A program made the translations under genes and the position numbers. 56,920 nucleotides of DNA. Origin: an uncultured Bacilli bacterium. Its GTDB lineage: Bacteria > Bacillota_I > Bacilli_A > RF39 > UBA660. Under the pieces are notes generated by a model. The model saw only the letters and a list, made by a program, of their open reading frames with translations, was not told where the DNA came from and made no database searches. This document shows, one piece after another, positions 1 through 54,150 of the stretch. Every line of letters begins with the position of its first letter. Within the stretch, counting starts at the first letter, position 1. The DNA lies in assembly GCA_947600015.1 (NCBI GenBank), contig CANQFX010000001.1, positions 1 to 56,920 on the forward strand, written 5' to 3'.

Positions 1-91
1 TTTCGGTGCGATTACTTTTTTTATTACCATATTTTCCCTTTGTTTTTATTAGTTATCATCTACAAAGGAATTTATTCAAAAGAAAGAAACA

Positions 92-12275: not shown

Positions 12276-12291
12276 TATTTCCCGGGAAATA
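12276..12291. other. Noc-binding site (NBS), perfect 16-mer TATTTCCCGGGAAATA
   Basis: Exact match to the published B. subtilis NBS palindrome (core ATTTCCCGGGAAAT). It sits inside a 24-bp perfect palindrome (12272..12295) between the rsmI stop and the pth RBS. Confidence 0.75.
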
Positions 12292-16660: not shown

Positions 16661-18349
16661 CTATTCTACTTCTACAATATCACCAAATAGTTCTACTGCA
16701 TTATTACTTATTATATCATTTTTTTGTTGGCTTTCCAATATAATTTCTGGTTCCTCTACTATAACATAATGTTTATTATTTTTTATACTATTAATATATT
16801 TTATGCGTTCTTTTTCCCATTCTTCATCACTAATTATAGCAATATTTTGTGTTAATTTTGTTATTTTGTGATAGACATTTACCATTTGATTTAAATTTAA
16901 TAAATTTTGCTTCACAATAGAATCATATTCATAACTAATAATAATATTTTTTTCACTAGCAGCACGAACTTTAGAATCTAATAAATTACATACAATATAA
17001 CCAATTTCTGTATCAAAAGTATAATCTTTCAACAATTCCATAGCATCAATTACTTTTTTCAACACCGTCTTATCTGCTTCTGCCAATGTATTATTGACAC
17101 GAACTTTCATAATTTCATCTAAATTTATTATTCTAGGAGTAGAATCACTCAAAATTTCTTTTTTTTCTAAAGAAGATATATTATCTTCTTTTGTATTTTC
17201 ATCAAGAGGTTCTGTTTCCATACTTACTTTTTGATCTAAATTTAATTGTTTTTCGATATCATTTTCTTTTTCAGGAGTTGAAATTATTTCCCGGGAAATA
17301 TTTTTTTGGGAAATAATGGAATTTTGGATAAAAGTTAATAATAAAATTTCTATATATATTCTTGGATTTCCACTTTTCTGAATATCGAACATTTTTTCGT
17401 TTATTAAATTAATTAATTTTTGAATTTCCACAAGTGAATATTCCAATTTTTTTGAAGAAATATAATAATCTACTACCAATTTTCGCAAAAAATACATAAA
17501 TTGCATCATTACTTGTACCATATTTTTACCAAGTTCATCCATTTTATTTAAAAATAGGATTAATGAAGAAATATTCCCACTAAAAATGATTTTATACAAC
17601 TCCGTTAAGTCTTTTTTTTGTGCCATATTATTTAATTTAGAAAAATCTTCAACTGTAATTTGTTCCGAAGTGTAAGAATGCAGTTTATCTAGCATTCCTA
17701 GAGCATCTCTCATCCCACCATCACAAAATATAGCAATTTCATCCAATACATCTTCATCTATTTTAATAGATTCTTGTTTACATACATAATCAAGTCTACT
17801 TTTAATCATATTTTCAGAAATACGATTAAAGGAAAAACACTGACATCTAGAAATAATAGTTTCAGGTACCTTTTGTTGATCTGTCGTAGCTAAGACAAAA
17901 ATAGCATGTTCAGGAGGTTCTTCTAACGTTTTCAACAATGCATTAAAAGCTTCTATTGATAGCATATGTACCTCATCAATTATATAAATTTTATATTTCA
18001 ATTGTGATGGAACCAAAGAAATTTTATTTTTTAATTCTCTTATTTCATTAACACCATTGTTAGAAGCAGCATCAATTTCTATAATATCAACGCATTCTTT
18101 ATCAAAAGAAGCCAAACAATTTTTACATTTTCCACATAAATTTCCATCATGTGAATCAAGACAATTGACTGTCCTAGCAAATATTTTAGAAATTGTAGTT
18201 TTTCCTGTTCCTCTAGGACCAAAAAACATATAAGCATGACTAAAAGAATGATTTTTAATAGAGTTTTTTAATGTTTGAACAATTACATTTTGACCAACGA
18301 CATCATCAAAAGTTTGAGGTCTATATTTTCTATAAAGGGCATGATACAT
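16661..18349 (-). CDS. dnaX: DNA polymerase III tau subunit DnaX
   Basis: ALYRKYRPQTFDDVVGQ, Walker A GPRGTGKTT, DEVHML and SRCQ. The ATG at 18349 is preferred over the TTG at 18355. Confidence 0.95.
   Translation of the reverse strand: MYHALYRKYRPQTFDDVVGQNVIVQTLKNSIKNHSFSHAYMFFGPRGTGKTTISKIFARTVNCLDSHDGNLCGKCKNCLASFDKECVDIIEIDAASNNGVNEIRELKNKISLVPSQLKYKIYIIDEVHMLSIEAFNALLKTLEEPPEHAIFVLATTDQQKVPETIISRCQCFSFNRISENMIKSRLDYVCKQESIKIDEDVLDEIAIFCDGGMRDALGMLDKLHSYTSEQITVEDFSKLNNMAQKKDLTELYKIIFSGNISSLILFLNKMDELGKNMVQVMMQFMYFLRKLVVDYYISSKKLEYSLVEIQKLINLINEKMFDIQKSGNPRIYIEILLLTFIQNSIISQKNISREIISTPEKENDIEKQLNLDQKVSMETEPLDENTKEDNISSLEKKEILSDSTPRIINLDEIMKVRVNNTLAEADKTVLKKVIDAMELLKDYTFDTEIGYIVCNLLDSKVRAASEKNIIISYEYDSIVKQNLLNLNQMVNVYHKITKLTQNIAIISDEEWEKERIKYINSIKNNKHYVIVEEPEIILESQQKNDIISNNAVELFGDIVEVE
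17285..17300. other. Noc-binding site (NBS), perfect 16-mer, inside dnaX coding sequence
   Basis: TATTTCCCGGGAAATA encodes ...ISREII... in the dnaX linker region. It is a GC-core palindrome in otherwise AT-rich coding DNA. Confidence 0.7.
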
Positions 18350-18402
18350 ATACAAAATACCTCCTAAGCAAAAATATTATATCATAGAAAAAAATAGAAA
18401 TT

Positions 18403-18979: not shown

Positions 18980-18995
18980 TGTTTCACGTGAAACA
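18980..18995. other. parS site (ParB/Spo0J centromere), perfect consensus TGTTTCACGTGAAACA
   Basis: Exact match to the Firmicute parS 16-mer. It extends to an 18-bp palindrome (18979..18996). Confidence 0.9.
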
Positions 18996-19063
18996 TAGAA
19001 AAAATATAATTATCCATAGAAGTATATTTAATAGAATTTAAATTTATAAATTTGTAATAAAAT

Positions 19064-19079
19064 TATTTCCCGGGAAATA
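19064..19079. other. Noc-binding site (NBS), perfect 16-mer
   Basis: TATTTCCCGGGAAATA lies within a 26-bp perfect palindrome, AAAATTATTTCCCGGGAAATAATTTT (19059..19084). Confidence 0.75.
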
Positions 19080-19091
19080 ATTTTAGATTAA

Positions 19092-19107
19092 TGTTCCACG
19101 TGGAACA
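19092..19107. other. parS site, symmetric variant TGTTCCACGTGGAACA
   Basis: 18-bp perfect palindrome at 19091..19108. It differs from parS-1 only at the two dyad-related positions 5 and 12. Confidence 0.8.
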
Positions 19108-24804: not shown

Positions 24805-25266
24805 TCAATTCATTTTATTCATCTCTATTTTTCTTTTTCTCATAATAAAATCTAATCTAGAAGCTCTAGATATTTGATTTTCTATTGTTCTATAAGAACA
24901 TGGAACGATAATTTCCTTATGATTATCAAAAATAATCTTTGTATTATTAGCATCAATTTTTTTAAAAGATTGTACTCTTTTTAACGAAATCCAAATACAA
25001 TCTTCAGCAAATGGAGATGTCGTAGGAAATACAATTAAATTATTTGTATCTTCTACAAGAATAGGAACTTTATATTCTGCTCCTAAAATATCTTTTGCAC
25101 TTTCTTTTCTTCCGTTGTACGTACTTCCAAAATACTTACAACTATCTTCCATAATTTTGAATGGTGATTGATTAATTATGTATCTGTCATCATCTTCATA
25201 AACTAAACTTGTTTCTTTCTCATTTGGTATAATTGCTAAGGTGCCATTACTTACTTCATATTTCAT
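24805..25266 (-). CDS. comK: ComK-family competence transcription factor
   Basis: 153 aa. YEVSNGTLAIIP..., SCKYFGSTYNGRKES, PILVEDTNNLIVFPTTSP, and CIWISLKRV...VPCSYRTIENQISRA parallel B. subtilis ComK (YEVNGATIAVLP, SCRFFGSSYAGRK, PIMVDPSNQIFLFPTLS, SYNSFENQVYRTA; from memory). Confidence 0.8.
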   Translation of the reverse strand: MKYEVSNGTLAIIPNEKETSLVYEDDDRYIINQSPFKIMEDSCKYFGSTYNGRKESAKDILGAEYKVPILVEDTNNLIVFPTTSPFAEDCIWISLKRVQSFKKIDANNTKIIFDNHKEIIVPCSYRTIENQISRASRLDFIMRKRKIEMNKMN

Positions 25267-31912: not shown

Positions 31913-33781
31913 ATGGAGTATGAAGTAATTGTAGTTGGAGGAGGTCATGCAGGTTGTGAAGCAGCTCTTGCAACTTCTAGAAAGAATCATAAAACTTTAC
32001 TAATTACTGGAAATATAAAAAATATTGCTGATATGCCTTGTAATCCATCAATTGGAGGGCCAGCAAAAGGCATTGTAGTAAGAGAAATTGATGCCCTTGG
32101 TGGAGAAATGGGAAAAAATACAGATAAAAGTACTCTCCAAATAAAAATGTTAAATACAAAAAAGGGTCCCGCAGTGCAAGCATTAAGAGCACAAGCAGAT
32201 AAAATTATTTATCCCCAAGAAATGTTAAAAACACTACAAAATGAAAAAAAATTAGAGATAAGAGAAGCAATTGTAGAAAAATTATTAATAAAAGATCAAA
32301 AAGTGATTGGTGTAGAATTAGAAGACAATACTAAGATTTACTCTAATATAGTAATACTAACAACAGGAACATATTTAAAATCAATGATATTAACAGGTTC
32401 TGAAAAAATACCAAGCGGACCACATGGTGAAAAAGAATCAAAATATTTAAGCAATCACTTAAAAGAATTAGGTTTTAAAATCTTACGCTTAAAAACGGGA
32501 ACTCCTCCTAGAATTGCAAAAGATTCAATTGATTTTAGTAAAGCATCATTAGAATTAGGAGATAATGATGAAAAAACATTCTCTTTTGACAATGAAGTTT
32601 ATTATGATGTAAAAAAACAAGTTCCATGTCATTTAATATACACAACATTAAAAACACATCAGATTATAAAGGAACATCTTCAAGAATCAAGTATGTATGG
32701 TGGTTATGTTGAAGGTATTGGCCCTCGATATTGTCCATCCATTGAAGATAAAGTTGTACGGTTTCAAGAAAAAGAAAGACATCAATTATTTTTAGAACCA
32801 GAAAGTATTTATTATGATGATATTTATATTCAAGGATTTTCTACTAGTATGCCTCATTATGTACAAGAAGAAATGGTACATAGTTTACCAGGACTAGAAC
32901 ATGCAAAAATATTAAAATATGCTTATGCGATTGAATATGATGCGATTGATCCTAAACAATTAAAACAAACCTTGGAAACAAAAATAATTGAAAATTTATA
33001 TACAGCTGGACAAATTAATGGTACGAGTGGTTATGAAGAGGCAGCTGGCCAAGGATTGATTGCAGGAATTAATGCTGCTTTAAAGTTAGAAGGAAAAGAT
33101 CCATTAATTTTAAAGAGAAATGAGTCTTATATAGGAGTACTAATTGATGATTTAGTTACAAAAGGAATTAAAGATCCTTATCGTTTATTAACCTCTCGTG
33201 CTGAATATCGTTTGTTATTGAGAAATGATAATGCGGATTTGCGATTAAGAGAGTATGGATATAAAGTAGGCTTGATTAATGAAAAAAGATATCAAAAATT
33301 TCAACAAAAGAAACAAGACATGAAATCTCTATTTGAATTATTAAAAGAAACGAGGATTACACCTAAAAAAGAAATAAATGAATATATAGAAAAAATAAAC
33401 TCTACACCATTAAAAGATGGAATATCCTTATATGAATTAGTAAAACGACCAGAAATTTCGATAGAACAACTCCATTTTTTTAAAAATATACCTTATAGTA
33501 AAGAAGTACAAGAAGAAGTAGAAATTAATATAAAGTACGAAGGTTATATCAAAAAAGCAACCAAAGAGGCAGAAAAAATGCTTTTATTAGAGGAAAAACG
33601 AATCCCTTTAGACATTGATTATAATAAGGTTCCTAATCTTGCAAGTGAAGCGCGACAAAAATTATTGGAAATAAATCCTACAACAATAGGACAAGCCTCA
33701 AGAATTAGCGGAGTTAACCCTGCTGATATTTCAATATTAATGGTGTATTTAAGAAGGAATTATCAAAATGACAAAAGATGA
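31913..33781 (+). CDS. mnmG: tRNA uridine 5-carboxymethylaminomethyl modification enzyme MnmG
   Basis: FAD motif [12 protein letters not shown]. 622 aa. Synteny supports the call. Confidence 0.95.
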
Positions 33782-34424
33782 ATTTAGACAAGAACTAGAA
33801 AAATTAAATATTTATTTGACAGAAGAACAATATAAAAAATTAGAACAATTTTATGAATTATTAATCGACTGGAACAAAAAAATTAATTTAACACGTATTG
33901 TAGAAAAAGAAGAAGTATATTTAAAACATTTTTATGATAGTTTAACAATAACAAAGGTGATTGATTTATCTACAATAAAAACATTATGTGATGTAGGGAC
34001 AGGAGCAGGATTTCCAGGAATCGTATTAAAAATTTGTTATCCAGATTTAGAAATTACTCTAATTGATGCCCGAAACAAAAGAGTTCTTTATTTAAATGAA
34101 ATAATAAAAACATTAAATTTAAAAAAAATAAAAGTAATACATATAAGAGGAGAAGAATATAAAGAACAGTTTGATTGTGTTGTTGCAAGAGCAGTTGCTA
34201 ATATTGAAAAACTAGTAAAATATACGATGCATTTAGTAAAAGAAAATGGTATGTTTATTGCAATGAAAGGAGATATTTCAACAGAGTTTTCTAAAAACAT
34301 ACGAAAAATAATAGAAAGAGAATATAAAATAGAAAAAACGGAAATTTTTCTATTACCAAAAGAAAATAGTAAAAGAAGTTTAATTGTATTAAAAAATACT
34401 CCAAAAAAAGAGAAAAGTAATTGA
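33768..34424 (+). CDS. rsmG: 16S rRNA (guanine527-N7)-methyltransferase RsmG
   Basis: WNKKINLT and [10 protein letters not shown]. It follows mnmG. Confidence 0.92.
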
Positions 34425-34492
34425 AAGATTACTTTTTTTGTTTTATAATGTTAATATAGGGATAATAAAAGAATAAAAAGCGAGGGAGTATT

Positions 34493-35881
34493 ATGAATAC
34501 AGAAACGAATGATGAAGTAGTATATTTACATTTAGATGATATTATACCAAATCGATTTCAACCACGCGAAGTATTTGATGAAAAAGCATTAAAAGAACTC
34601 GCTGTATCAATAAAAGAACATGGTGTAATTCAACCAATTATTGTAAGAAGTGTAAATGGAAAATATGAAATTATTGCTGGTGAAAGAAGATATAAAGCCT
34701 CTGCTTTAGCTGGATTAACAAAAATTCCTGCTATTATTAGAGATTTAGATGATAAAGAAAGTTCTAAAGTAGCCTTGCTAGAAAATTTACAAAGGAAAAA
34801 TCTAAATCCAATAGAAGAAGCAAGAACATATCAAAAAATTTTAGAATTAGATGAAATGACACAAGAAGATTTAGCAAAAACAATGGGGAAAAGTCAATCC
34901 GCAGTAGCAAATAAATTAAGATTATTATCTTTACCAGATGAAATTCAAGATGCGCTATTAAAAGAACAAATTTCAGAACGTCATGCTAGAACTTTGCTAA
35001 ATATACCAGAAGAGAAAACACAAAAGGAAATGTTAAAAAAAGTAATAAATGAAAAAATAACAGTACGAGCTTTAGAAGAAGAAATCAAAAAAATGTATCC
35101 TAAAGAAAATGAAAAAGAAAATGAAGAAATACCAGAAAATGTAGTAAATGCAAAGGAAACAGTGTCTACAAATGATTTTGTAAATACAAATCCATTAATG
35201 CCAACAGCAGAATTACCAGAAGATACATCGAATTATGGAAAAGTGACAATTGTTCCTCCTAAAGAAGATAATGCAGAAGACACAATGGTAGATGAAGAAA
35301 AACCAACGCCTAAATTTATCAATTATGGAGAAATTAAAGATGATGAGGAAGAGGATGCTGAAAATGATGTTCTTTCTAACACAATAGAACCAATTGATAT
35401 CAATAAGATGAAAGAAACAGCAACGGATATTAATGACAAAAAACCAGAACCAGTAGCAGATTTAGATAGTCTTTTAAATTTAAATTTACCACAAGAGAAG
35501 GCTCAAGAAGTACCGAATGAAAATGGCTTTAAGTTTATTACTCCAGCAGAAGAAATTATAAAAAGTGATGAAGAAGAAAGTAAACAAGAACCAACAGGAG
35601 ATTATTTTAAAACTCCAGATTTAGTACCAGTAGAATTACCTTCTGAAATTCCAACTGCAAAAACAGAAAATGTGTCCATTAATTCTGTATTAAATGAAAC
35701 TCCAACGATAAATGCTCCAGCAGAAAATAAAGAACAAATTTCAATTGATACCGCAGTAGATAAAATAAGAGATTTAGTAAAAGAATTAAAAACGAATGGA
35801 ATAAAAGTAGAAACAAATGAAATGAATTTTGAAAAATCATATCAAATTATTATCAAACTAGATAAAAATAATAATGAATAA
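34493..35881 (+). CDS. noc: Nucleoid occlusion protein Noc (ParB-family), atypically long (462 aa)
   Basis: It occupies the rsmG-noc-soj-spo0J position. ParB N-domain motifs IIPNRFQPR and GERRYKA are present. The HTH GKSQSAVANKLRLLSLP...ISERHARTL carries Noc-type residues (Q, K, R), where the Spo0J paralogue has R, M, G. The C-terminus DKIRDLVKELKTNGIKVETNEMNFEKSYQIIIKL resembles the Noc C-terminal domain. Confidence 0.85.
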   Translation: MNTETNDEVVYLHLDDIIPNRFQPREVFDEKALKELAVSIKEHGVIQPIIVRSVNGKYEIIAGERRYKASALAGLTKIPAIIRDLDDKESSKVALLENLQRKNLNPIEEARTYQKILELDEMTQEDLAKTMGKSQSAVANKLRLLSLPDEIQDALLKEQISERHARTLLNIPEEKTQKEMLKKVINEKITVRALEEEIKKMYPKENEKENEEIPENVVNAKETVSTNDFVNTNPLMPTAELPEDTSNYGKVTIVPPKEDNAEDTMVDEEKPTPKFINYGEIKDDEEEDAENDVLSNTIEPIDINKMKETATDINDKKPEPVADLDSLLNLNLPQEKAQEVPNENGFKFITPAEEIIKSDEEESKQEPTGDYFKTPDLVPVELPSEIPTAKTENVSINSVLNETPTINAPAENKEQISIDTAVDKIRDLVKELKTNGIKVETNEMNFEKSYQIIIKLDKNNNE

Positions 35882-36021: not shown

Positions 36022-36807
36022 ATGGGAAAGATTATTTCATTAGTAAATCAAAAAGGTGGCGTAGGAAAGACAACAACAAGTATTAATCTTTCCGCATCTT
36101 TAGCAGTACTTGGAAAAAGAGTATTATTAATTGATTTAGATCCACAAGGAAATACTACAACAGGAGTAGGAATTAATAAAGCTGATATTGAAAAAAGTAT
36201 TTATGAAGTTCTAATAGGTGAATGTAAAATATCAGAAGCGATGATAAAAACAAAATATAAAAATTTATATGTTCTTCCTGCTACAATTCATTTGGCAGGA
36301 TTGGATATTGAATTGATAGAAAAAAGTAGACAAAACAATGGTTTTTTAAAGGGTGAACAATTGAAAATTCATTTGCAAGATATAAAAGAAAGTTTTGACT
36401 ATATTATTATTGATTGCCCTCCTTCTTTAGGAGTAATTACAACAAATGCCTTAACTGCCTCAAACTCAGTTATTATTCCAGTGCAGTGTGAATTTTTTGC
36501 TTTAGAGGGAATTACTCAATTATTGAAAACAATTATGCTAGCACAAAAAAGTTTAAATCCAACTTTGGATATCGAAGGAGTTTTGCTTACGATGCTAGAT
36601 TCTAGAACAAATCTTGGTTTTGAAGTAGTAGAAGATATTAGAAAGTTTTTTAAAGAAAAAGTATACAATACAATTATTCCCCGACTAGTACGGTTAACAG
36701 AAGCTCCATCACATGGAGAACCTATCATTGCTTATGATCCAAAAAGTAGAGGATCAGAGGCATATGTGAATTTAGCGAAGGAAGTGATTGAACGAAATGG
36801 ACAATAA
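36022..36807 (+). CDS. soj: Chromosome partitioning ATPase ParA/Soj
   Basis: Deviant Walker A NQKGGVGKTTT. 261 aa. It lies immediately upstream of parB. Confidence 0.95.
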   Translation: MGKIISLVNQKGGVGKTTTSINLSASLAVLGKRVLLIDLDPQGNTTTGVGINKADIEKSIYEVLIGECKISEAMIKTKYKNLYVLPATIHLAGLDIELIEKSRQNNGFLKGEQLKIHLQDIKESFDYIIIDCPPSLGVITTNALTASNSVIIPVQCEFFALEGITQLLKTIMLAQKSLNPTLDIEGVLLTMLDSRTNLGFEVVEDIRKFFKEKVYNTIIPRLVRLTEAPSHGEPIIAYDPKSRGSEAYVNLAKEVIERNGQ

Positions 36808-37684
36808 AAGAAGAGCTTTAGGAAGAGGGTTAGAAGAATTATTTAATAATGAACCAATAGATTATAACAAAGTAGAAGAAAAAATTTTAACAACTACGCC
36901 AAAAGAACAAATTACCATGGTTAAAATAGAAGAATTAAGAAGCAATCCGTATCAACCTCGAAAAGTATTTGATGAACAAGCATTACAAGAATTAGCAAGT
37001 TCCATTAAAGAACATGGAGTATTTCAACCCATTATTATTAAAAAAAGTATTAAGGGGTATGAAATAATTGCTGGAGAACGTCGTGTAAAAGCATCAAAAA
37101 TCGCAGGATTAACAGAGATTCCTGCTATTATTCGAGATTTTAATGACACAGAAATGATGGAAATAGCACTATTGGAAAATTTACAAAGAGAAAATTTAAG
37201 TGCCATAGAAGAATCCCAAGCTTACAAAAAATTACAAGAAACGCTAAACTTAACACAAGATCAATTAGCAAAACGACTTGGAAAGAGTCGTAGCCATATT
37301 ACAAATATGTTAGGATTATTAACATTACCAGAATCTATTCAAGAAAGAATTAATAATAAAGAAATATCGATGGGACATGCAAGAGTATTAAGCAAATTAG
37401 AAAATAAAGATCAACAAGAATCATTAACAAAAAAAATTGTAGAAGAAGGGTTGAGTGTTAGAAAATTAGAAGAATTAACTCAATCAAATCAACAATTTGC
37501 AAGAACTCATCAAATAAAACCAAAGAGACAAGAAAGAAATGAATATCATTATATAGAAGAGGAATTATGTGAACAATTAGGAACAAAGGTAAAAGTGACA
37601 AGTAATAAAATAGAAATAAGTTTTGTAAATAGTAATGATTTAAATAGAATATTAGAAATTATAAATATTAAACCTGGGAGGTAA
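36797..37684 (+). CDS. spo0J: Chromosome partitioning protein ParB/Spo0J
   Basis: ALGRGLEELF, NPYQPRKVF, GERRVKA, and the HTH GKSRSHITNMLGLLTLP. The ATG at 36797 is preferred over the TTG at 36788. Confidence 0.93.
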   Translation: MDNKRRALGRGLEELFNNEPIDYNKVEEKILTTTPKEQITMVKIEELRSNPYQPRKVFDEQALQELASSIKEHGVFQPIIIKKSIKGYEIIAGERRVKASKIAGLTEIPAIIRDFNDTEMMEIALLENLQRENLSAIEESQAYKKLQETLNLTQDQLAKRLGKSRSHITNMLGLLTLPESIQERINNKEISMGHARVLSKLENKDQQESLTKKIVEEGLSVRKLEELTQSNQQFARTHQIKPKRQERNEYHYIEEELCEQLGTKVKVTSNKIEISFVNSNDLNRILEIINIKPGR

Positions 37685-37686
37685 AA

Positions 37687-38508
37687 ATGATTTCTTTAAT
37701 GGATCTAATTAAAATAGATTTAAAATATATTTTTTATCCACTACTATATATCTTACTAGGAATGATTTCTTATACACTTTTAAAAAAAATCGTATACAAA
37801 ATAACTTCTTCGAATGAAAAAAAACTAAAATCTTCCCAAAAACAAAAGTTAAACACCATGAGGATTTTAATGCTAAATATATTAAAATATGGAGTTGTAA
37901 TTTTAGTTTTCTTAGCAATTCTTTCTGTTTTTGGCGTAAATATAAAATCAATTTTAGCAGGATTAGGAGTAACAACAGTATTATTAGGGTTAGCATTACA
38001 GGACTTAGCGAAAGATTTTATTGCAGGAATATCAATTATAACAGAAGGACAATATGAAGTAGGAGATACCATTGAAGTAGATGGTTTTATGGGTGAAGTT
38101 GTTTTTGTAGGATTAAAAACAACGAGAATAAGAAACTATAAAGGTGCAACCAAAATTATTGCAAACCATTATATGGATAATATAATTAATTATAGTCTTC
38201 ACAATTCTTTAGCAATTGTAGATGTATCAACAGGGTATGAACACGCTCCAGAAGAAATAGAAAAAGTATTAAATAAATTAGCAAAAAAATTAAATGGAAC
38301 AATAAAAGAAGCAACGGGAGAAATAGAAATACTAGGAATAGAAAATTTAGAGGATTCGGGAGTGATTTATCGAATAACATTAGAGGTGGAATCAATGAAA
38401 CAATATATCGTAGAAAGATATTTACGAAAAGAGGTAAAAAAAGCTTTTACTGAGGCAAACATAAAAATTCCTTATCCTCAAATTGAGGTGCATCATGGAA
38501 GTAAATAA
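37687..38508 (+). CDS. Small-conductance mechanosensitive channel (MscS family)
   Basis: Three TM segments followed by LQDLAKDFIAGISIITEGQYEVGDTIEVDGFMGEVVFVGLKTTRIR. Confidence 0.85.
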   Translation: MISLMDLIKIDLKYIFYPLLYILLGMISYTLLKKIVYKITSSNEKKLKSSQKQKLNTMRILMLNILKYGVVILVFLAILSVFGVNIKSILAGLGVTTVLLGLALQDLAKDFIAGISIITEGQYEVGDTIEVDGFMGEVVFVGLKTTRIRNYKGATKIIANHYMDNIINYSLHNSLAIVDVSTGYEHAPEEIEKVLNKLAKKLNGTIKEATGEIEILGIENLEDSGVIYRITLEVESMKQYIVERYLRKEVKKAFTEANIKIPYPQIEVHHGSK

Positions 38509-46020: not shown

Positions 46021-47511
46021 ATGAAAAAATTTGAAACCATCTTTTTTCTTATTATATTATTTTTCTCTATCTTTTTAGGAACTGGTCTTTCTTTACAAAA
46101 GATCAATCCCAAAACTGTATATCATGTATATTTAAAGGGAAAATCAATAGGAATAATTGAATCCAAAGAAGAATTAGAAAAATATATTAATGAAAAGCAA
46201 CAAGAAATCAAAGAGAAATATCATGTTGATAAAGTCTATTTACCGGAAGAATTAGATATTTTAAAGGAAATTACATATGATGATGAAATAGAATCAATTC
46301 AAGAAATATATAAAAAAATTAAGGACATCTCCCCTTTTACAATTAAAGGCTATGCAATTAAGATTAAGGGAATTGATACGAAAGATAATAAAGGTAAAAA
46401 AGTAAAAGGTAAGGACCAAACAATTTATGTATTAGACAAAAAGGTATTTTCTGATGCAGTAGATAGTTTAGTAAAATCATTTATTCCAGAAGAAGAATAT
46501 ACCGCTTATGCCAATAATACACAAAAAGAGATTAAAGATACTGGAAAACTTATTGAAAATATATATATTGAAAATAAAATTACAATAAAAAAACAAAATA
46601 TTCCAGTAGATCAAACAATTTATCAAGAAAAAGAGAATTTAAGTAAATTTTTACTGTTTGGTACAACGGAAAAGCAAAAAACATATGAAGTAAAAACAGG
46701 AGATACGATTGAAGACGTTGCATTTAATAATAAAATATCAACAGAAGAATTTTTAATTGCAAATCCTTCTTTTTCCGATACAAATAGTTTATTATATGCC
46801 GGACAAGAAGTAACAATTGGAATTTTGAAACCACAATTTAATATTGTAGAAGAAGACCACGTCGTAGTAAGAGAAGAGAAAAATTATACAACGGAAACGA
46901 GATATGATAACAGCAAATATGTAGGATACAATGAAGTGATTCAGAAAGGGTCAAAAGGAGAAAATAAAGTAACGCAAAAAATCCAAAAAGTAAATGGAGA
47001 AACAAAAAATGTAGTCACAGTTACCACGGAAGTAATCAAAGAACCAGTCAACGAAATTGTTGTCAAAGGTGGAAAAGAGTCCAATTATGGTGCAGGCTAT
47101 GGAACTGTTGTTGCGACAAAAGGTCAGTGGGGATGGCCAGCAACATGTGCTTCCATTTCTAGTCCATTTGGATGGCGTTGGGGAGTATTGCATGATGGTA
47201 CTGATATTGCAGGATGTGGATACGGTTCTAATATTTTTGCCGCTCAATCTGGAACAGTAGTACAATCTGCTTATAAATATGATAATGGGCAATATATTAC
47301 AATTGATCATCATAATGGTTATTATTCTATGTATGCGCATTTATGCAATGGATGTCGTTATGTAAAAGTAGGAGATAATGTCGTAAAAGGTCAAGTGATA
47401 GGAGCAATGGGAATGACAGGTGCTGCGACAGGAGTGCATGTTCATTTCGCAATTTGGCAAGGTTATCCTTATCGTGGAGGAAGAGCGTTAAACGCGATGA
47501 ATTTCTATTAA
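46021..47511 (+). CDS. Membrane-anchored peptidoglycan hydrolase: LysM plus G5 plus M23 metallopeptidase
   Basis: N-terminal TM segment. LysM is YEVKTGDTIEDVAFNNKISTEEFLIANP. The G5-like region is around EVIQKGSKGENKVTQKIQKVNGE. M23 motifs are HDGTDIA, YSMYAHL and GVHVHFAI. Confidence 0.8.
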   Translation: MKKFETIFFLIILFFSIFLGTGLSLQKINPKTVYHVYLKGKSIGIIESKEELEKYINEKQQEIKEKYHVDKVYLPEELDILKEITYDDEIESIQEIYKKIKDISPFTIKGYAIKIKGIDTKDNKGKKVKGKDQTIYVLDKKVFSDAVDSLVKSFIPEEEYTAYANNTQKEIKDTGKLIENIYIENKITIKKQNIPVDQTIYQEKENLSKFLLFGTTEKQKTYEVKTGDTIEDVAFNNKISTEEFLIANPSFSDTNSLLYAGQEVTIGILKPQFNIVEEDHVVVREEKNYTTETRYDNSKYVGYNEVIQKGSKGENKVTQKIQKVNGETKNVVTVTTEVIKEPVNEIVVKGGKESNYGAGYGTVVATKGQWGWPATCASISSPFGWRWGVLHDGTDIAGCGYGSNIFAAQSGTVVQSAYKYDNGQYITIDHHNGYYSMYAHLCNGCRYVKVGDNVVKGQVIGAMGMTGAATGVHVHFAIWQGYPYRGGRALNAMNFY

Positions 47512-52170: not shown

Positions 52171-54150
52171 TTAGGTTCCTACTTGATTAGATGACTTTTC
52201 ATCGAAAGTTTGATCCGTTTCACGAGGTTCTGTTCCCTTAATAAAATACATAAGTTTTTGTTTTGGAGAATTTTGTGTTGCAGGTTTCCCTGAAATTGGT
52301 TCTACAAATACGGCCGAAACATTATCTGGTTTTTGATACCAAAAATCTTTTGCTTGCGCTTTTTCATAGTTTTCTACCGATTGATACCAGATATTTTGTG
52401 CATATTTATATTCGGAAGTAGAAAGAGATTGATTGTCATCATACCCACACCATACAGCACTCACAATATCAGGATTAAATCCAATATTCCAATTATCACT
52501 ATTTGTTGTTCCACTTTTTAGGGCATATTTATGCGTTAGTTTCGAAGAAAGACCTATGGCTGTAGGATAATTATAATCAATATAATCTGGATCATAAGTT
52601 CCTGTAAGCATATTATTAAGAATATAAACAAGACTAGAATTTAAAACTAACTCTTTTTTATTACTGGCTTGATATAAAACATTTCCTTCTTTATCTACTA
52701 CCTTTTCAATTAAGTGAGGAGTTACCTTGTATCCTAAATTAGCAAATGCGGAGTATCCAGCCGCCATTTCAATAATACTAATCTCATTCGTCCCTAAAGG
52801 TAAAGAAGGAACATCTTGCAAATTAGCAGTAATCCCTACTCTTTTTGCCACATTAATTAATGCATCACTTCCTAAAAATAAATGTGTTTTTACAGCATAA
52901 ATATTTTCAGAATATGCAATGGCAGTAGCCATAGAAATTGGTTTGTTCCCATAAGTGTCATTATAATTTTTGGGAGAATAATCGTCTTGATTTTGAAAAG
53001 TAAAAGTAGTAGCTTCACTCGTAAAAGCAGAACTAGAAGTAAACCCATTTTCCAAGGCAGCATAGTAAAGATATGGCTTCATCGTAGATCCTACTTGTCG
53101 TATGGAAGAAATCGCTCGATTATAAGAGGAACTTTGATAATCCCGTCCTCCAATCAATGCAAGAATTCCCCCAGTATTTGGATTCATTAAAACAGCGGAA
53201 ACTTGAATTTTAGACTCTTCAGGGATCGTTTCATCAATCGTTTTTTCTAAATTTCTTTGTGCATTAAAATCAAGATTGGTATAAATTTGTAATCCTTTGG
53301 TATCAGTATACGATTCTGGGATAGAATGAATTTTCTTTAACTCTTGCACTACTGCATCTTGATAATACATAATAGTACTTAATTCCTCTTGTTCTTCTTT
53401 TCCACTAAGATGCAATTCTTCTTGATATGCATTGTTTTTTTCCTCTTCTGAAATCACACCATTTTTTACAAGTAAATCTAAAACCAACAATTGTCTCTTC
53501 TTTGCCACTTCAAAATCAACAAAAGGAGAATAATTAGCAGGAGATTTAGGAATTCCTGTAAGAAGTGCAGCCTCAGCAAGAGTCAAATCTTTTGCTGACT
53601 TATTAAAATAAAAATTACTAGCATTTTCAATACCATATTTTCCATGACCATAATTAATTGTATTTAGATATCCTTCTAAAATTTCATCTTTTGAATAAGA
53701 AGACTCTATTCTCATGGTATACCACATTTCATCCCATTTTCTTTTCCAAGTCTTTGAAAAATCTAAAAATAAATTTTTTGCGTATTGTTGTGTTATTGTA
53801 GAAGCCCCCTGCTCTGTTTTTCCACTAGTAAGATTAATATAAGTAGCCTTTAAAATACGTAAAAAATCAAATCCATGATGTTTATAAAAATTTTTATCTT
53901 CTGTATTAATAGTTGCCTCAATTAAATAATCAGAGATTTGGTCTAAACTTACCCATTGTTTTGATTCATTCCCTTGAAAAAACACTTCTCCTTTTTGATC
54001 ATAAAACATCAAACTATTTGCACTATTAATTTCTAGTTTCGGAGCAGTCTTAATATAAATAAATACTCCTGTAATTACCAAAACAAATAAAATGAAAAAA
54101 AACATCATTATTTTAAATAAAATCTTTTTCTTTTTTCTTTTTCTATTCAC
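52171..54150 (-). CDS. Class A penicillin-binding protein (glycosyltransferase GT51 plus transpeptidase)
   Basis: GT51 motifs EDKNFYKHHGFD and GASTITQQYAKN. Transpeptidase motifs STMKP (SxxK) and KSGTT (KTG-like). GTG start. Confidence 0.92.
   Translation of the reverse strand: MNRKRKKKKILFKIMMFFFILFVLVITGVFIYIKTAPKLEINSANSLMFYDQKGEVFFQGNESKQWVSLDQISDYLIEATINTEDKNFYKHHGFDFLRILKATYINLTSGKTEQGASTITQQYAKNLFLDFSKTWKRKWDEMWYTMRIESSYSKDEILEGYLNTINYGHGKYGIENASNFYFNKSAKDLTLAEAALLTGIPKSPANYSPFVDFEVAKKRQLLVLDLLVKNGVISEEEKNNAYQEELHLSGKEEQEELSTIMYYQDAVVQELKKIHSIPESYTDTKGLQIYTNLDFNAQRNLEKTIDETIPEESKIQVSAVLMNPNTGGILALIGGRDYQSSSYNRAISSIRQVGSTMKPYLYYAALENGFTSSSAFTSEATTFTFQNQDDYSPKNYNDTYGNKPISMATAIAYSENIYAVKTHLFLGSDALINVAKRVGITANLQDVPSLPLGTNEISIIEMAAGYSAFANLGYKVTPHLIEKVVDKEGNVLYQASNKKELVLNSSLVYILNNMLTGTYDPDYIDYNYPTAIGLSSKLTHKYALKSGTTNSDNWNIGFNPDIVSAVWCGYDDNQSLSTSEYKYAQNIWYQSVENYEKAQAKDFWYQKPDNVSAVFVEPISGKPATQNSPKQKLMYFIKGTEPRETDQTFDEKSSNQVGT

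Follow-up and report, generated by a model that had tools for sequence, protein, structure and literature searches.

In the window analyzed here, a stretch of 56,920 nucleotides (27.8% GC) from an uncultured RF39-type member of the Bacilli, an open reading frame of the noc lineage follows rsmG and is followed in turn by soj and spo0J (Table 1). An earlier note on this DNA had called this arrangement, rsmG-X-soj-spo0J, the canonical noc slot, and gene calls and domain matches agree. The order mnmG-rsmG-noc-soj-spo0J is kept in 65 of 80 genomes, and some related genomes retain noc and a parS/NBS cluster without adjoining soj-spo0J. RF39 is known, in the literature covered, only from metagenome-assembled genomes. 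It is also predicted there to be walled, and the window encodes a class A PBP and a LysM/M23 peptidase; the organism is walled, and a division-related role for the protein remains meaningful.

The 68-nt spacer between rsmG and noc contains stops throughout all three frames of translation, and thus no frameshift can restore an N-terminal extension; the in-frame TAA at 34466-34468, which had been taken to bar an upstream extension, does so. A GAGGGAG ribosome-binding site precedes the ATG. The promoter-like site 5' of the open reading frame is near-consensus, which is a match in sequence and not proof of function. A terminator scan downstream of the open reading frame found none.

Table 1. Coordinates of the genes, protein regions and DNA sites in the window
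Feature	Position	Strand	Details
rsmG	33768-34424		gene preceding noc
Promoter-like site TTGAAA-17-TATAAT	34421..34449	+	11/12 consensus matches; overlaps rsmG stop codon
noc-lineage ParB/CTPase gene	34493..35881	+	462 aa; no N-terminal membrane helix; real open reading frame
ParB_N CTP-binding domain	34514..34792	+	residues 8-100; PF02195 E = 1.3e-35; AF2 pLDDT ~80-90
HTH DNA-binding domain (DBD)	34796..35095	+	residues 102-201; PF17762 E = 4.9e-35; NBS-type reading residues
Acidic, proline-rich linker, predicted disordered	35096..35743	+	residues 202-417; 216 aa; net charge -34
Linker island FVNTNPLMPTAELPEDTSNYGKVTIVPP	35177..35260	+	residues 229-256; invariant or near-invariant columns in 120 sequences
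PKFINYGEI and acidic run KDDEEEDAEN	35309..35365	+	residues 273-291; local copy of family motif K-F-[FI]-N-[FY]-acidic
Linker islands IDINKMKETATDIN and VADLDSLLNL	35390..35482	+	residues 300-314 and 321-330; conserved columns
Linker islands FKFITPAEEIIKSD and GDYFKTPDLVPVELP	35528..35641	+	residues 346-359 and 369-383; conserved columns
Noc-like C-terminal (dimerization) domain (CTD)	35744..35878	+	residues 418-462; one helix then two strands
soj (ParA) and spo0J (ParB)	36022..37684	+	soj 36022-36807, spo0J 36788-37684; paralogous partition system directly downstream of noc
NBS	12277..12290	.	pth/rsmI spacer; slot rarely occupied in relatives
NBS	17286..17299	.	within dnaX coding sequence
Composite site cluster	18980..19107	.	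tadA/gyrA spacer, origin-proximal; parS, NBS, parS variant
parS TGTTTCACGTGAAACA	18980-18995	.	tadA/gyrA spacer cluster
NBS	19065-19078	.	tadA/gyrA spacer, between two parS sites
parS variant TGTTCCACGTGGAACA	19092-19107	.	tadA/gyrA spacer cluster

A Noc-lineage protein with a short acidic N terminus

Noc is a DNA clamp that restrains cell division over the chromosome. Central to its current model is an N-terminal amphipathic helix that, once freed by a CTP switch, anchors NBS-flanking DNA at the membrane. This highly conserved helix, MKHSFSRFFG..., is needed for Noc function in B. subtilis, and every homologue examined was reported to have it (Adams 2015; Jalal 2021). When the window Noc is aligned with canonical Noc, its residue 5/6 falls at residue 24 of the G. 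thermoleovorans protein and at residue 27 of the B. subtilis protein. The MKHSFSRFFGLGEKEQE... module is thus missing, together making up the ~20 initial residues of canonical Noc with the α1 membrane helix and α2. What stands in their place is acidic, with a net charge of -3 and a hydrophobic moment of 0.08 over the first 11 residues. Alignment, charge and hydrophobic moment all uphold the earlier reading of an acidic N terminus without an amphipathic helix.

The same feature recurs well beyond the window. A short acidic N terminus was present in 79 of 79 RF39-type gut genomes whose N termini were read, and the longest-ORF starts in 79 genomes yielded no helix-like N-terminal extension. The helix is likewise missing from 268 family proteins, in which PNRFQPR begins between residues 10 and 32 (median 19) versus residue 40 in B. 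subtilis, and the charge before this motif is negative in all but one (267/268).

Several lines of evidence place the protein with Noc. Its best PDB sequence matches are to Noc (212 bits to 7NG0/7NFU versus at most 180 for ParBs), its top fold matches are Noc structures, and the fold of its HTH domain matches that of the Noc DBD-NBS complex 6Y93 with a TM of 0.89 and an rmsd of 1.1-1.5 Å. The TIGR04285 model scores it at 298.5 bits, versus 239.5 for the adjacent Spo0J; the score lies below the model's cutoff of 315, and the match is broken into two stretches by the linker. In a tree, Spo0J and Noc-type proteins split at 100/100 bootstrap, with the window protein on the Noc side. The C-terminal ~45 residues have TIGR04285 (positions 214-255) as their top family match, although a weak one (E = 4.4e-4, 19.7 bits); this match, together with conservation of the domain throughout the family, bears out the earlier mention of a recognizable Noc-like C-terminal domain, which AF2 models at a pLDDT of 80-90.

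The CTP-binding and hydrolysis motifs GERRYK (residues 63-68) and ENLQR (residues 97-101, with the catalytic N) are invariant in 120 relatives and align with the sequences of the Noc crystal structures, to which they are identical or conservatively substituted. The third basic residue of CTP box II (GERRxR) is K here, not R; the R91A mutation at the equivalent position is tolerated in B. subtilis Noc (Adams 2015). At the positions equivalent to 173/179/184/201, the window Noc carries Q135, K141, S146 and R163, whereas the adjacent Spo0J carries the parS-type residues R, M, T and G, so that the contrast of Q/K/R with R/M/G drawn in the earlier note is correct by residue alignment. The S at the position equivalent to 184 is unlike the K of canonical Noc. 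Q173 and R201 with a permissive K at 179 or 184 suffice for NBS binding (Jalal 2020), and Q135 and R163 together with K141 thus conform to this experimentally defined rule. Among family representatives, 149 of 149 have Q at the first reading position and R (in one case K) at the last, with S/N/T/A rather than K at position 184. From these conserved residues we infer that the window Noc binds CTP, forms a clamp and binds NBS.

Judged by its sequence and predicted fold, the protein is a genuine Noc-lineage, NBS-specific ParB-type CTP clamp. The earlier assignment as a Noc orthologue is thus supported, as to lineage, by PDB sequence and fold matches, specificity residues, cognate NBS and synteny.

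The family set consisted of the best 150 cluster representatives at 50% identity. In all of them, as in the 79 genomes above, a short acidic N terminus goes with the Q-K-x-R signature and with an acidic linker, which is 89-573 aa in length. In these predicted proteins, the combination of a short acidic N terminus with a long acidic linker is clade-wide and family-wide and not peculiar to one gene. On this comparison the window Noc falls in a very large, uncharacterized family that is sister to canonical Noc, occurs in RF39-type low-GC gut Bacilli and abounds in gut metagenomes of humans and animals. In the literature searched, no characterized relative with the helix-less, long-linker architecture was found. 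In a neighbor-joining tree, the helix-less family and canonical Noc are sisters at only 62/100 bootstrap; the direction assumed in the earlier note, with the helix lost and the insertion gained, is not established.

The acidic linker and its conserved motifs

Between the HTH and C-terminal domains, residues ~202-417 contain 53 D/E, 19 K/R and 22 P (10% Pro), with AF2 pLDDT values mostly below 50-68. Searches of the linker against Pfam and NCBIfam matched no family, and no tandem repeats of significance were found in it. The region had been described as a ~215-aa low-complexity insertion. Its length and its acidic, proline-rich composition stand, and at least seven conserved short motifs are present. 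These include the three aromatic islands singled out at the time, which are among the best-conserved columns of the linker. The islands reach at least 90-100% conservation in a set of 120 sequences whose overall identity is only 58-70%. Short helices are predicted within IDINKMKETATDIN and VADLDSLLNL (303-309 and 323-327) and at FKFITPAEEIIKSD (351-364).

Over the wider family, the linker is net negative in 149 of 149 representatives. Most of the clade-specific motifs are absent beyond the nearest representatives. No transmembrane segments were found in 149 family linkers, save in one probable frameshifted C terminus, and in the AF2 model the linker is of low confidence, with no docking seen.

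One motif does extend across the family. K-F-[FI]-N-[FY] followed by an acidic tail occurs in 41 of 150 diverse family representatives, versus 1.4 (maximum 6) in shuffled linkers. In sequence, it resembles the core of the canonical Noc helix, FSRFFGLGEKEQ. When a PSSM of the linker motif is run against 17,833 background windows, the canonical helix of B. subtilis ranks within the top 0.03% and that of G. thermoleovorans within the top 0.08%, and the register is exact, with canonical R-F-F-G-L against linker K-F-F-N-F. The resemblance is post hoc, with p ~0.01-0.03 after window correction, and the two canonical sequences are not independent. Read with that qualification, it lends some support to an aromatic island as an alternative tether. 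An 11-residue scan of hydrophobic moment and charge across the N terminus and linker found nothing above the lipid-binding threshold: linker windows reached D < 0.68, versus 1.13 for residues 1-11 of B. subtilis Noc, and high scores occurred only in folded domains.

These results bear on the possibility that the membrane helix has been relocated. In such a case classical nucleoid occlusion would have been kept, the membrane-targeting and autoinhibitory α1-α2 module would correspond to the linker motif (PKFINYGEI-KDDEEED), and weak multivalent lipid binding by this motif in many clamps at once would tether NBS-flanking DNA to the membrane. The excess of the motif over shuffled linkers and the rank and register of the canonical helix both favor such a relocation, as does the acidic run that follows the motif, as it does in canonical FSRFFGLG-EKEQE. 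The canonical helix is, moreover, itself weak, works only multivalently and can be replaced by an unrelated helix (Adams 2015). However, the motif is matched in only ~27% of representatives, the copy in the window is less hydrophobic (F, I, Y, I) and lies where AF2 pLDDT is below 50, the flanking linker is strongly anionic, and no linker window comes up to the lipid-binding heuristic. With the resemblance being post hoc as well, we consider a relocated helix unlikely.

NBS and parS sites near the replication origin

A site scan confirms the three perfect NBS ATTTCCCGGGAAAT that had been reported in the window, against a chance expectation of 0.18 even with 2 mismatches. They account for all three CCCGGG hexamers of the window, each flanked T...A. 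In 13 of 55 related loci, dnaX carries a perfect NBS at the matching position, 1.0-1.2 kb into the gene. One NBS of the window lies between two parS sites, which the earlier note had missed.

In 80 genomes (1.44 Mb), no NBS or parS was found up to 10 kb on either side of noc, and a DnaA-anchored search was therefore used. It gave 13 loci, picked through DnaA homology alone and without reference to NBS or parS sites. In all 13, a perfect or one-mismatch NBS is interleaved with parS in the gyrA/tadA spacer, ~9 kb from oriC, and a Noc with a short N terminus and long linker follows rsmG. All NBS and parS of these loci lie in the gyrA-tadA-dnaX spacers, save for an NBS inside dnaX in two. Among the matches listed in a metagenome scan, ~115 of 120 loci with an adjacent NBS-parS pair were syntenic with the gyrA/tadA region; the scan was designed for adjacent pairs, and its frequency estimates are biased. 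Over ~2.3 Mb of ori-proximal sequence, NBS concentrate at the parS cluster and are rare outside it. Given that the sequence examined is the 25-57 kb around oriC, NBS may also lie dispersed over the whole genome, as they do in B. subtilis; in the canonical pattern the terminus region is free of them.

The sites are interleaved at distances of 20-80 bp. No single rigid NBS-parS distance was found, only modes ~10 bp apart, of which those near 26 and 36 bp are stronger than those at ~47, 58, 68 and 78 bp. The spacing of these modes suggests helical phasing, a signal that is weak outside the search range (Rayleigh power 5.4, n = 89). The presence of interleaved parS/NBS clusters beside gyrA, conserved across the lineage, points to an origin- or centromere-associated role.

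Such a role could be confined to the centromere. A second clamp loaded between parS sites would then shape the ParB partition complex, for instance by limiting or insulating ParB spreading or by preventing over-condensing through a polyanionic brush, and the protein would have no part in division. The linker would be passive, mainly enlarging the clamp lumen or serving as an entropic or electrostatic bristle. The interleaving of the two kinds of site, the distance modes and the concentration of NBS at the parS cluster all fit this account. In ParB clamps, the tether between DBD and CTD forms the lumen that holds DNA, and the insertion lies exactly in this tether. Further, linkers that vary so widely in length yet are always acidic are typical of regions selected for composition and not for sequence. 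But the near-invariance of seven linker islands within the clade goes beyond mere composition, and the one motif that spans subfamilies argues for specific binding. The persistence of noc and the cluster without adjacent soj-spo0J in some genomes may also make strict dependence on ParAB doubtful, and the phasing is weak where it falls outside the search range. A purely accessory function with a passive linker thus seems quite unlikely to us.

A proposed mode of action and its relation to known systems

The weakest alternative, in which a mis-called start, a frameshift, an assembly error or a degenerating Noc with a neutrally expanded linker would explain the architecture, draws on the metagenome-assembled, fast-evolving, reduced genome of origin and on the sub-cutoff TIGR04285 score, but it is extremely improbable and effectively refuted by the comparative data, given the upstream stops in three frames, the promoter-like and ribosome-binding sites before the ATG, the identical architecture in 79 independent genomes and 268 proteins, the strong conservation of NTD, DBD, CTD and linker islands, and the conserved cognate NBS, one of them maintained inside dnaX.

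The earlier note had inferred another tether, a partner protein or a function away from the membrane. The reading that we tentatively favor, with somewhat less than even confidence, is that of an NBS-loaded CTP clamp that sits beside ParB at the origin and acts through linker motifs that recruit protein partners. By analogy with the ParB/Noc mechanism, the window Noc would load at NBS, close into a CTP-dependent sliding clamp and spread locally. Because NBS and parS are interleaved, Noc and ParB would load next to each other on shared origin-proximal DNA. The linker would be the effector, its motifs recruiting one or more division or segregation proteins to the origin-proximal nucleoprotein complex. 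The link from chromosome to envelope or divisome would then be protein-mediated, unlike the direct lipid binding by the N-terminal helix in Bacillus subtilis. These last two steps are the least certain. Since the linker motifs vary between subfamilies, any partner interface would not be universal. Counting against a partner is the observation that genetic screens with canonical Noc turned up no protein partner (Adams 2015). The protein probably works differently from the textbook Noc.

A bolder synthesis would join several of these elements. In it, the α1-α2 module takes the form of a motif within the linker, Noc and ParB load together on helically phased, interleaved NBS/parS arrays as a mixed, origin-proximal "composite centromere," and anchoring of the origin or centromere is ancestral, the genome-wide nucleoid occlusion of Bacillus, with its N-terminal helix and scattered NBS, being derived. 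We regard this combination as rather improbable.

In general, this large natural family, which has the CTPase core, the NBS-reading residues and the NBS sequence but no helix, tests which parts of Noc are essential. The long acidic, motif-bearing linker of this family lies where the clamp encloses DNA, and the absence of the helix suggests a mode of action that is protein-mediated or depends on a relocated motif. The interleaved parS and NBS near oriC suggest, further, that one stretch of DNA can be loaded with two paralogous CTP clamps, which raises directly testable questions about the traffic of clamps, about partition complexes of mixed composition and about how nucleoid occlusion arose in evolution. 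The gene and sites are short enough for synthesis and for tests in vitro or in B. subtilis. New here are the interleaved NBS/parS clusters in the gyrA/tadA spacer and the family-wide K-F-[FI]-N-[FY]-acidic linker motif; neither a Noc without the helix nor composite clusters of parS and NBS were found described in the literature searched, in which coverage was incomplete.

The closest known system is canonical Noc (B. subtilis YyaA; G. thermoleovorans 7NFU/7NG0; B. subtilis Noc-NBS 7OL9/6Y93). The two share the same domains and GERR/ENLQR motifs, ~50% identity over NTD and DBD, Q173/K179/R201-type reading residues, an identical NBS palindrome, TATTTCCCGGGAAATA, and the same gene slot from rsmG to soj-spo0J. 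They differ in that the window Noc has no equivalents of residues 1 to ~23/26 (α1 and α2) and in that its DBD-CTD tether, which spans 7 positions in the TIGR04285 model, comprises ~216 acidic, motif-bearing residues. They differ also in the distribution of their sites. In the regions seen, NBS of the family are clustered with parS near oriC, whereas those of B. subtilis are scattered around the chromosome (Jalal 2020; Jalal 2021).

Chromosomal ParB/Spo0J resembles the window Noc in fold, in its presumed CTP-clamp cycle and in loading at a 16-bp palindrome near oriC, and in the RF39-type lineage the sites of the two are physically interleaved. Nevertheless, the window Noc reads DNA with Q/K/-/R, where ParB uses R/x/x/G, and groups with Noc at 100/100 bootstrap. 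It has no N-terminal LG-R/K-GL ParA-activating peptide, in contrast to the adjacent Spo0J, which carries KRRALGRGLEELF as its N-terminal ParA-contact peptide. Its linker is also long and acidic.

Two further systems bear on the partner-recruitment reading that we favor. SlmA of Escherichia coli, a member of the TetR family, binds specific chromosomal sites and antagonizes division through protein-protein contact. If partner recruitment is right, SlmA would be an analogue in function only, in that division would be antagonized by protein contact and not by lipid binding; its fold is unrelated, and it has no CTP clamp. KorB of plasmid RK2 (PDB 8QA8/8QA9, among the fold matches) is distant (~30% identity), plasmid-borne, directed to another DNA site and outside the Noc lineage. 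But it is likewise a ParB-family CTP clamp, and the title of entry 8QA9 describes it in co-complex with another protein of RK2, so that there is precedent for cooperation between a ParB-like clamp and a partner.

Identity of the Noc-type protein

The protein encoded between rsmG and soj/spo0J belongs to the Noc lineage and is of the type that reads NBS, the Noc DNA site, and not parS, the ParB/Spo0J site. Its best sequence matches in the PDB are Noc of G. thermoleovorans (7NG0/7NFU, 212 bits) and of B. subtilis (7OL9, 192 bits), with ParB/Spo0J structures reaching at most 180 bits. Noc structures also rank first in a fold search with the AlphaFold model, which is confident at residues 8–201 and 418–456 and low elsewhere, and the predicted DNA-binding domain (DBD) superposes on the Noc–NBS complex 6Y93 with a TM score of 0.89 at 1.1–1.5 Å. 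In a neighbor-joining tree of the N-terminal CTP-binding domain (NTD) and DBD, Spo0J and Noc-type proteins separate in 100/100. Jalal et al. described four positions at which the specificity of ParB can be changed from parS to NBS; the switching residues are Q173 and R201, and one lysine, at 179 or 184, is enough (PMC7383237). At these positions the window protein has Q, K, S, R and the adjacent Spo0J R, M, T, G.

The NCBIfam Noc model, TIGR04285, matches the protein in two stretches at 298.5 bits (the neighboring Spo0J scores 239.5), below its curated cutoff of 315 bits; the C-terminal ~45 residues resemble model positions 214–255. Thus fold, conserved CTP-motif residues, reading residues, cognate sites, synteny and C-terminal domain (CTD) are those of Noc, and the N-terminal membrane helix and a score above the cutoff are missing. 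The protein should be filed as a new subfamily, or variant, of Noc and not as its functional equivalent; no description of a helix-less, long-linker Noc was found in the literature searched, coverage of which was incomplete.

Canonical Noc begins MKHSFSRFFGLGEKEQEPEIAEHDTNKEEILEIPVNAIVPNRFQPR (B. subtilis) or MKHPFSRLFSFGEKEQEEMEEKQEREEVRHIPVKSIIPNRFQPR (G. thermoleovorans) in the PDB sequences, and the window protein MNTETNDEVVYLHLDDIIPNRFQPR. In the alignment, its residue 5/6 pairs with residue 24/27 of canonical Noc, which leaves it without α1, the membrane-targeting sequence, and without α2; over the first 11 residues the charge is −3 and there is almost no hydrophobic moment. Adams et al. 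called the helix "extremely" conserved, predicted it in every homologue they examined and observed that NocNΔ10 does not function (PMC4331003); according to Jalal et al. (PMC8429893), the helix is autoinhibited on the NTD until CTP frees it. The earlier note had proposed, from its own reading of the DNA, an ORF in the noc slot with NBS-type reading residues, an acidic, helix-less N-terminus and an acidic, proline-rich insertion before a Noc-like CTD, and each of these points stood up to the comparisons.

Positions of features in the window and motifs of the linker
Feature	Position	Strand	Remarks
NBS	12277		pth/rsmI spacer
NBS	17286–17299		Inside dnaX (16661–18355, −), encodes ...KNISREII...
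Perfect parS	18980		tadA|gyrA spacer
NBS	19065		tadA|gyrA spacer, between two parS sites
Palindromic parS variant TGTTCCACGTGGAACA	19092		tadA|gyrA spacer
ComK-family gene (PF06338), small	24805–25266	−	Between dnaN and recF
rsmG	33768–34424		Upstream neighbor of Noc-type ORF
Noc-type ORF, 462 aa	34493–35881	+	Between rsmG and soj/spo0J
ParB_N (Pfam)	Residues 9–100		Window protein
HTH_ParB (Pfam)	Residues 102–201		Window protein
Linker islands 1–2			MYPKE; FVNxNPLxPTAxLPEDTSNYGKVTIAPP; near-invariant, 120 sequences
Linker island 3			PKFINYGEI, then acidic run; near-invariant, 120 sequences
Linker islands 4–5			IDINxIKENAxDIN; ADLDSLLNI; near-invariant, 120 sequences
Linker islands 6–7			FITPAEEIVKTD; EDYFKTPDL; near-invariant, 120 sequences
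soj/spo0J	36022–37684		Downstream neighbors of Noc-type ORF
MscS-like membrane channel gene	37684–38508		Begins 3 nt past spo0J stop
Class A PBP and LysM/G5/M23 peptidase genes	52171–54150 and 46021–47511

NBS and parS sites near the origin

The count of three perfect ATTTCCCGGGAAAT NBS in the window, also made in the earlier note, was confirmed, against 0.18 expected even with two mismatches. They are the only CCCGGG hexamers of this 27.8% GC stretch, and each extends to TATTTCCCGGGAAATA. One lies in a parS–NBS–parS cluster (18980–19107) in the spacer that separates gyrA from a tadA-like deaminase gene, ~9 kb from dnaA; no description of such composite clusters was found in the literature searched, which was incompletely covered. 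In 13/55 related loci, dnaX carries a perfect NBS at the same point as in the window, and a DNA site appears to be maintained inside this coding region.

A metagenome scan for NBS within 5–30 bp of parS returned at least 120 stretches, ~115 of them syntenic with window 8–28 kb at protein identities of 35–90%; the listed contigs (L081–L160) have 19–35% GC throughout. Because the scan required one adjacent NBS–parS pair, loci anchored on DnaA were used as an unbiased control: nine close relatives and four distant-lineage loci, with DnaA ~45% identical to that of the window. In all 13 of these 21-kb loci, every NBS and parS falls within the gyrA–tadA–dnaX spacers, bar a dnaX-internal NBS in two, and the gene after rsmG encodes a Q-[K/R]-x-R protein of 353–489 aa with a short N-terminus and a long linker. 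Over the 120 scan loci listed plus these 13, in a survey limited to ori-proximal DNA, 264/304 NBS and 388/429 parS map to the gyrA|tadA spacer, the tadA|dnaX spacer or a contig end beside these genes. Within ±10 kb of noc, neither site was found in 80 genomes (1.44 Mb total). The same 13/13 loci keep the ComK-family gene between dnaN and recF, which is unusual for the dnaA-dnaN-recF-gyrB core.

The gyrA|tadA spacer of related low-GC genomes (L081–L213) holds up to nine parS and eight NBS. One locus (L151) reads P-N-P-N-P-N-P-N-P within 300 bp (P, parS; N, NBS), three (L097, L084, L082) each contain four to five P-N pairs, spaced ~260–420 bp, and another (L148) has seven parS at 38-bp spacing plus an NBS. 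Distances between NBS and parS centers (loci L081–L209) peak near 26 and 36 bp, with lesser bumps around 47, 58, 68 and 78 bp. A Rayleigh test gives a power of 16 for a 10.7–11 bp period over all 218 de-duplicated adjacent pairs and a weak 5.4 for a 10.3-bp period over the 89 pairs that lie beyond the distances searched, which suggests helical phasing of the two sites. Five loci, one from a close relative (L206) and four from the distant lineage (L210–L213), have no soj-spo0J beside noc, where WXG100 or Band_7 genes follow instead, and still contain parS, in up to nine copies; there, ParAB is either encoded elsewhere or lost.

A family with a long acidic linker

A search of 5.8 billion proteins gave >120 clusters of 425–510 aa, 58–68% identical across ~99% of the query. 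A scan of species-representative genomes gave 409 relatives, the best 80 of which all match residues 1 to ~458 and come from metagenome-assembled genomes labeled uncultured Tenericutes, Mollicutes or Bacilli, Mycoplasma sp. CAG:877 or Candidatus Faecimonas. The last is GTDB genus CAG-877 (order RF39, family CAG-611; ~28% GC, 1.4 Mb; PMC8035907), and the DnaA of the window shares 82% identity with a protein recorded under Ca. Faecimonas intestinavium. Genes for a class A PBP and a LysM/G5/M23 peptidase in the window show that the source organism, labeled Tenericutes in records, makes peptidoglycan, in agreement with the walled cells predicted for RF39 (PMC10868615). The window has jag-mnmE-mnmG upstream of rsmG, and the complete order mnmG-rsmG-noc-soj-spo0J-mscS occurs in 65 of the 80 loci; mscS follows spo0J in 72. 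It may be co-transcribed with the partition genes, and its product is a candidate envelope partner.

The wider family was taken as the top 150 matches in an exhaustive search of 50%-identity cluster representatives (248–519 bits, 316–821 aa). Their N-termini always lie only a few residues ahead of PNRFQPR. The P of this motif is residue 10–32 (median 19) across 268 family proteins and residue 40 in B. subtilis, and the stretch in front of it has a net negative charge in 267/268. The first specificity position is Q in all representatives and the last R in all but one (K), with K179 in 143/149 and N/S/T/A, not K, at 184. All 149 measurable linkers are net negative (89–573 aa, median 224) and, apart from one probably frameshifted C terminus, free of transmembrane segments. 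The comparison with relatives proposed in the earlier note thus finds the helix-less, long-linker architecture family-wide. In the tree, canonical Noc, represented by two sequences, is sister to the family, whose monophyly reaches only 62/100. The helix may have been lost in the family, as envisaged in the note, or gained in the Bacillus branch.

Possible roles of the linker

In the window protein, the linker (residues ~202–417) holds 53 D/E, 19 K/R and 22 P, for a net charge of −34. It has no Pfam or NCBIfam match and no significant tandem repeats, and short helices are predicted at 303–309, 323–327 and 351–364 with low to moderate confidence (AlphaFold). Seven islands are near-invariant among 120 sequences with only 58–70% overall identity. 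Most are clade-specific, other subfamilies having their own (INPFQ, FLNIDVP, NQFLPNFD, PGFMD, SLGSMFD), and the linker has expanded and diversified repeatedly. One subfamily (P0170–P0203), with proteins up to 821 aa, has linkers of 330–550 aa rich in N/S/T/Q with repeated motifs of its own (NQFLPNFD, PGFMD, SLGSMFD, MGLNDY). A single motif is shared between subfamilies: [KR]-F-[FI]-N-[FY] with acidic residues after it (e.g. PKFINYGEIDDDE, GKFFNFLEDEE), present in 41/150 representatives versus 1.4 (maximum 6) for shuffled linkers.

In ParB-type clamps, the DBD–CTD tether is the part that encloses DNA. Because the acidic insertion sits exactly in this tether, the clamp lumen would have to be far larger and negatively lined. 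By the established ParB/Noc cycle, the protein would nucleate at NBS, bind CTP, close its N-gate and slide; Noc and ParB clamps, loading within one stretch of a few hundred base pairs, would occupy overlapping ori-proximal DNA. Our leading, if tentative, reading is that the effector role has shifted to the linker, through whose motifs one or more protein partners would be recruited to the origin-proximal complex.

Several other possibilities bear on the same observations. First, K-F-[FI]-N-[FY] could be a relocated weak membrane or autoinhibitory module, so that classical tethering persists, which we consider unlikely. In a position-specific matrix built from the linker instances, the best window of both canonical N-termini is the membrane-helix core, in register: FSRFFGLGEKEQ (B. 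subtilis residues 5–16) falls in the top 0.03% and FSRLFSFGEKEQ (G. thermoleovorans) in the top 0.08% of 17,833 background windows, a post hoc result for two N-termini homologous to each other that, at ~34 windows per N-terminus, amounts to roughly p = 0.01–0.03. The resemblance may be taken as a lead. The scan of the insertion for amphipathic helices, which the earlier note had advised, gave no lipid-binding-like window in the window protein by a hydrophobic-moment and charge heuristic. Second, the protein could be an accessory of the ParB complex with a largely passive polyanionic linker; the shared NBS–parS clusters and uniformly negative linkers would fit, the near-invariant islands would not, and we regard this as quite improbable. 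Finally, an artefactually short N-terminus or a decaying gene is effectively excluded: stops close all three frames of the 68-nt rsmG–noc spacer (the in-frame TAA at 34466–34468 barring extension, as the earlier note had held), the ATG has ahead of it a promoter-like site, TTGAAA-17-TATAAT (matching at 11/12 positions), and a ribosome-binding site, GAGGGAG, and none of 79 N-termini examined among the best genome relatives is extended.

The action of B. subtilis Noc is defined by its N-terminal membrane helix, which the window protein is without.
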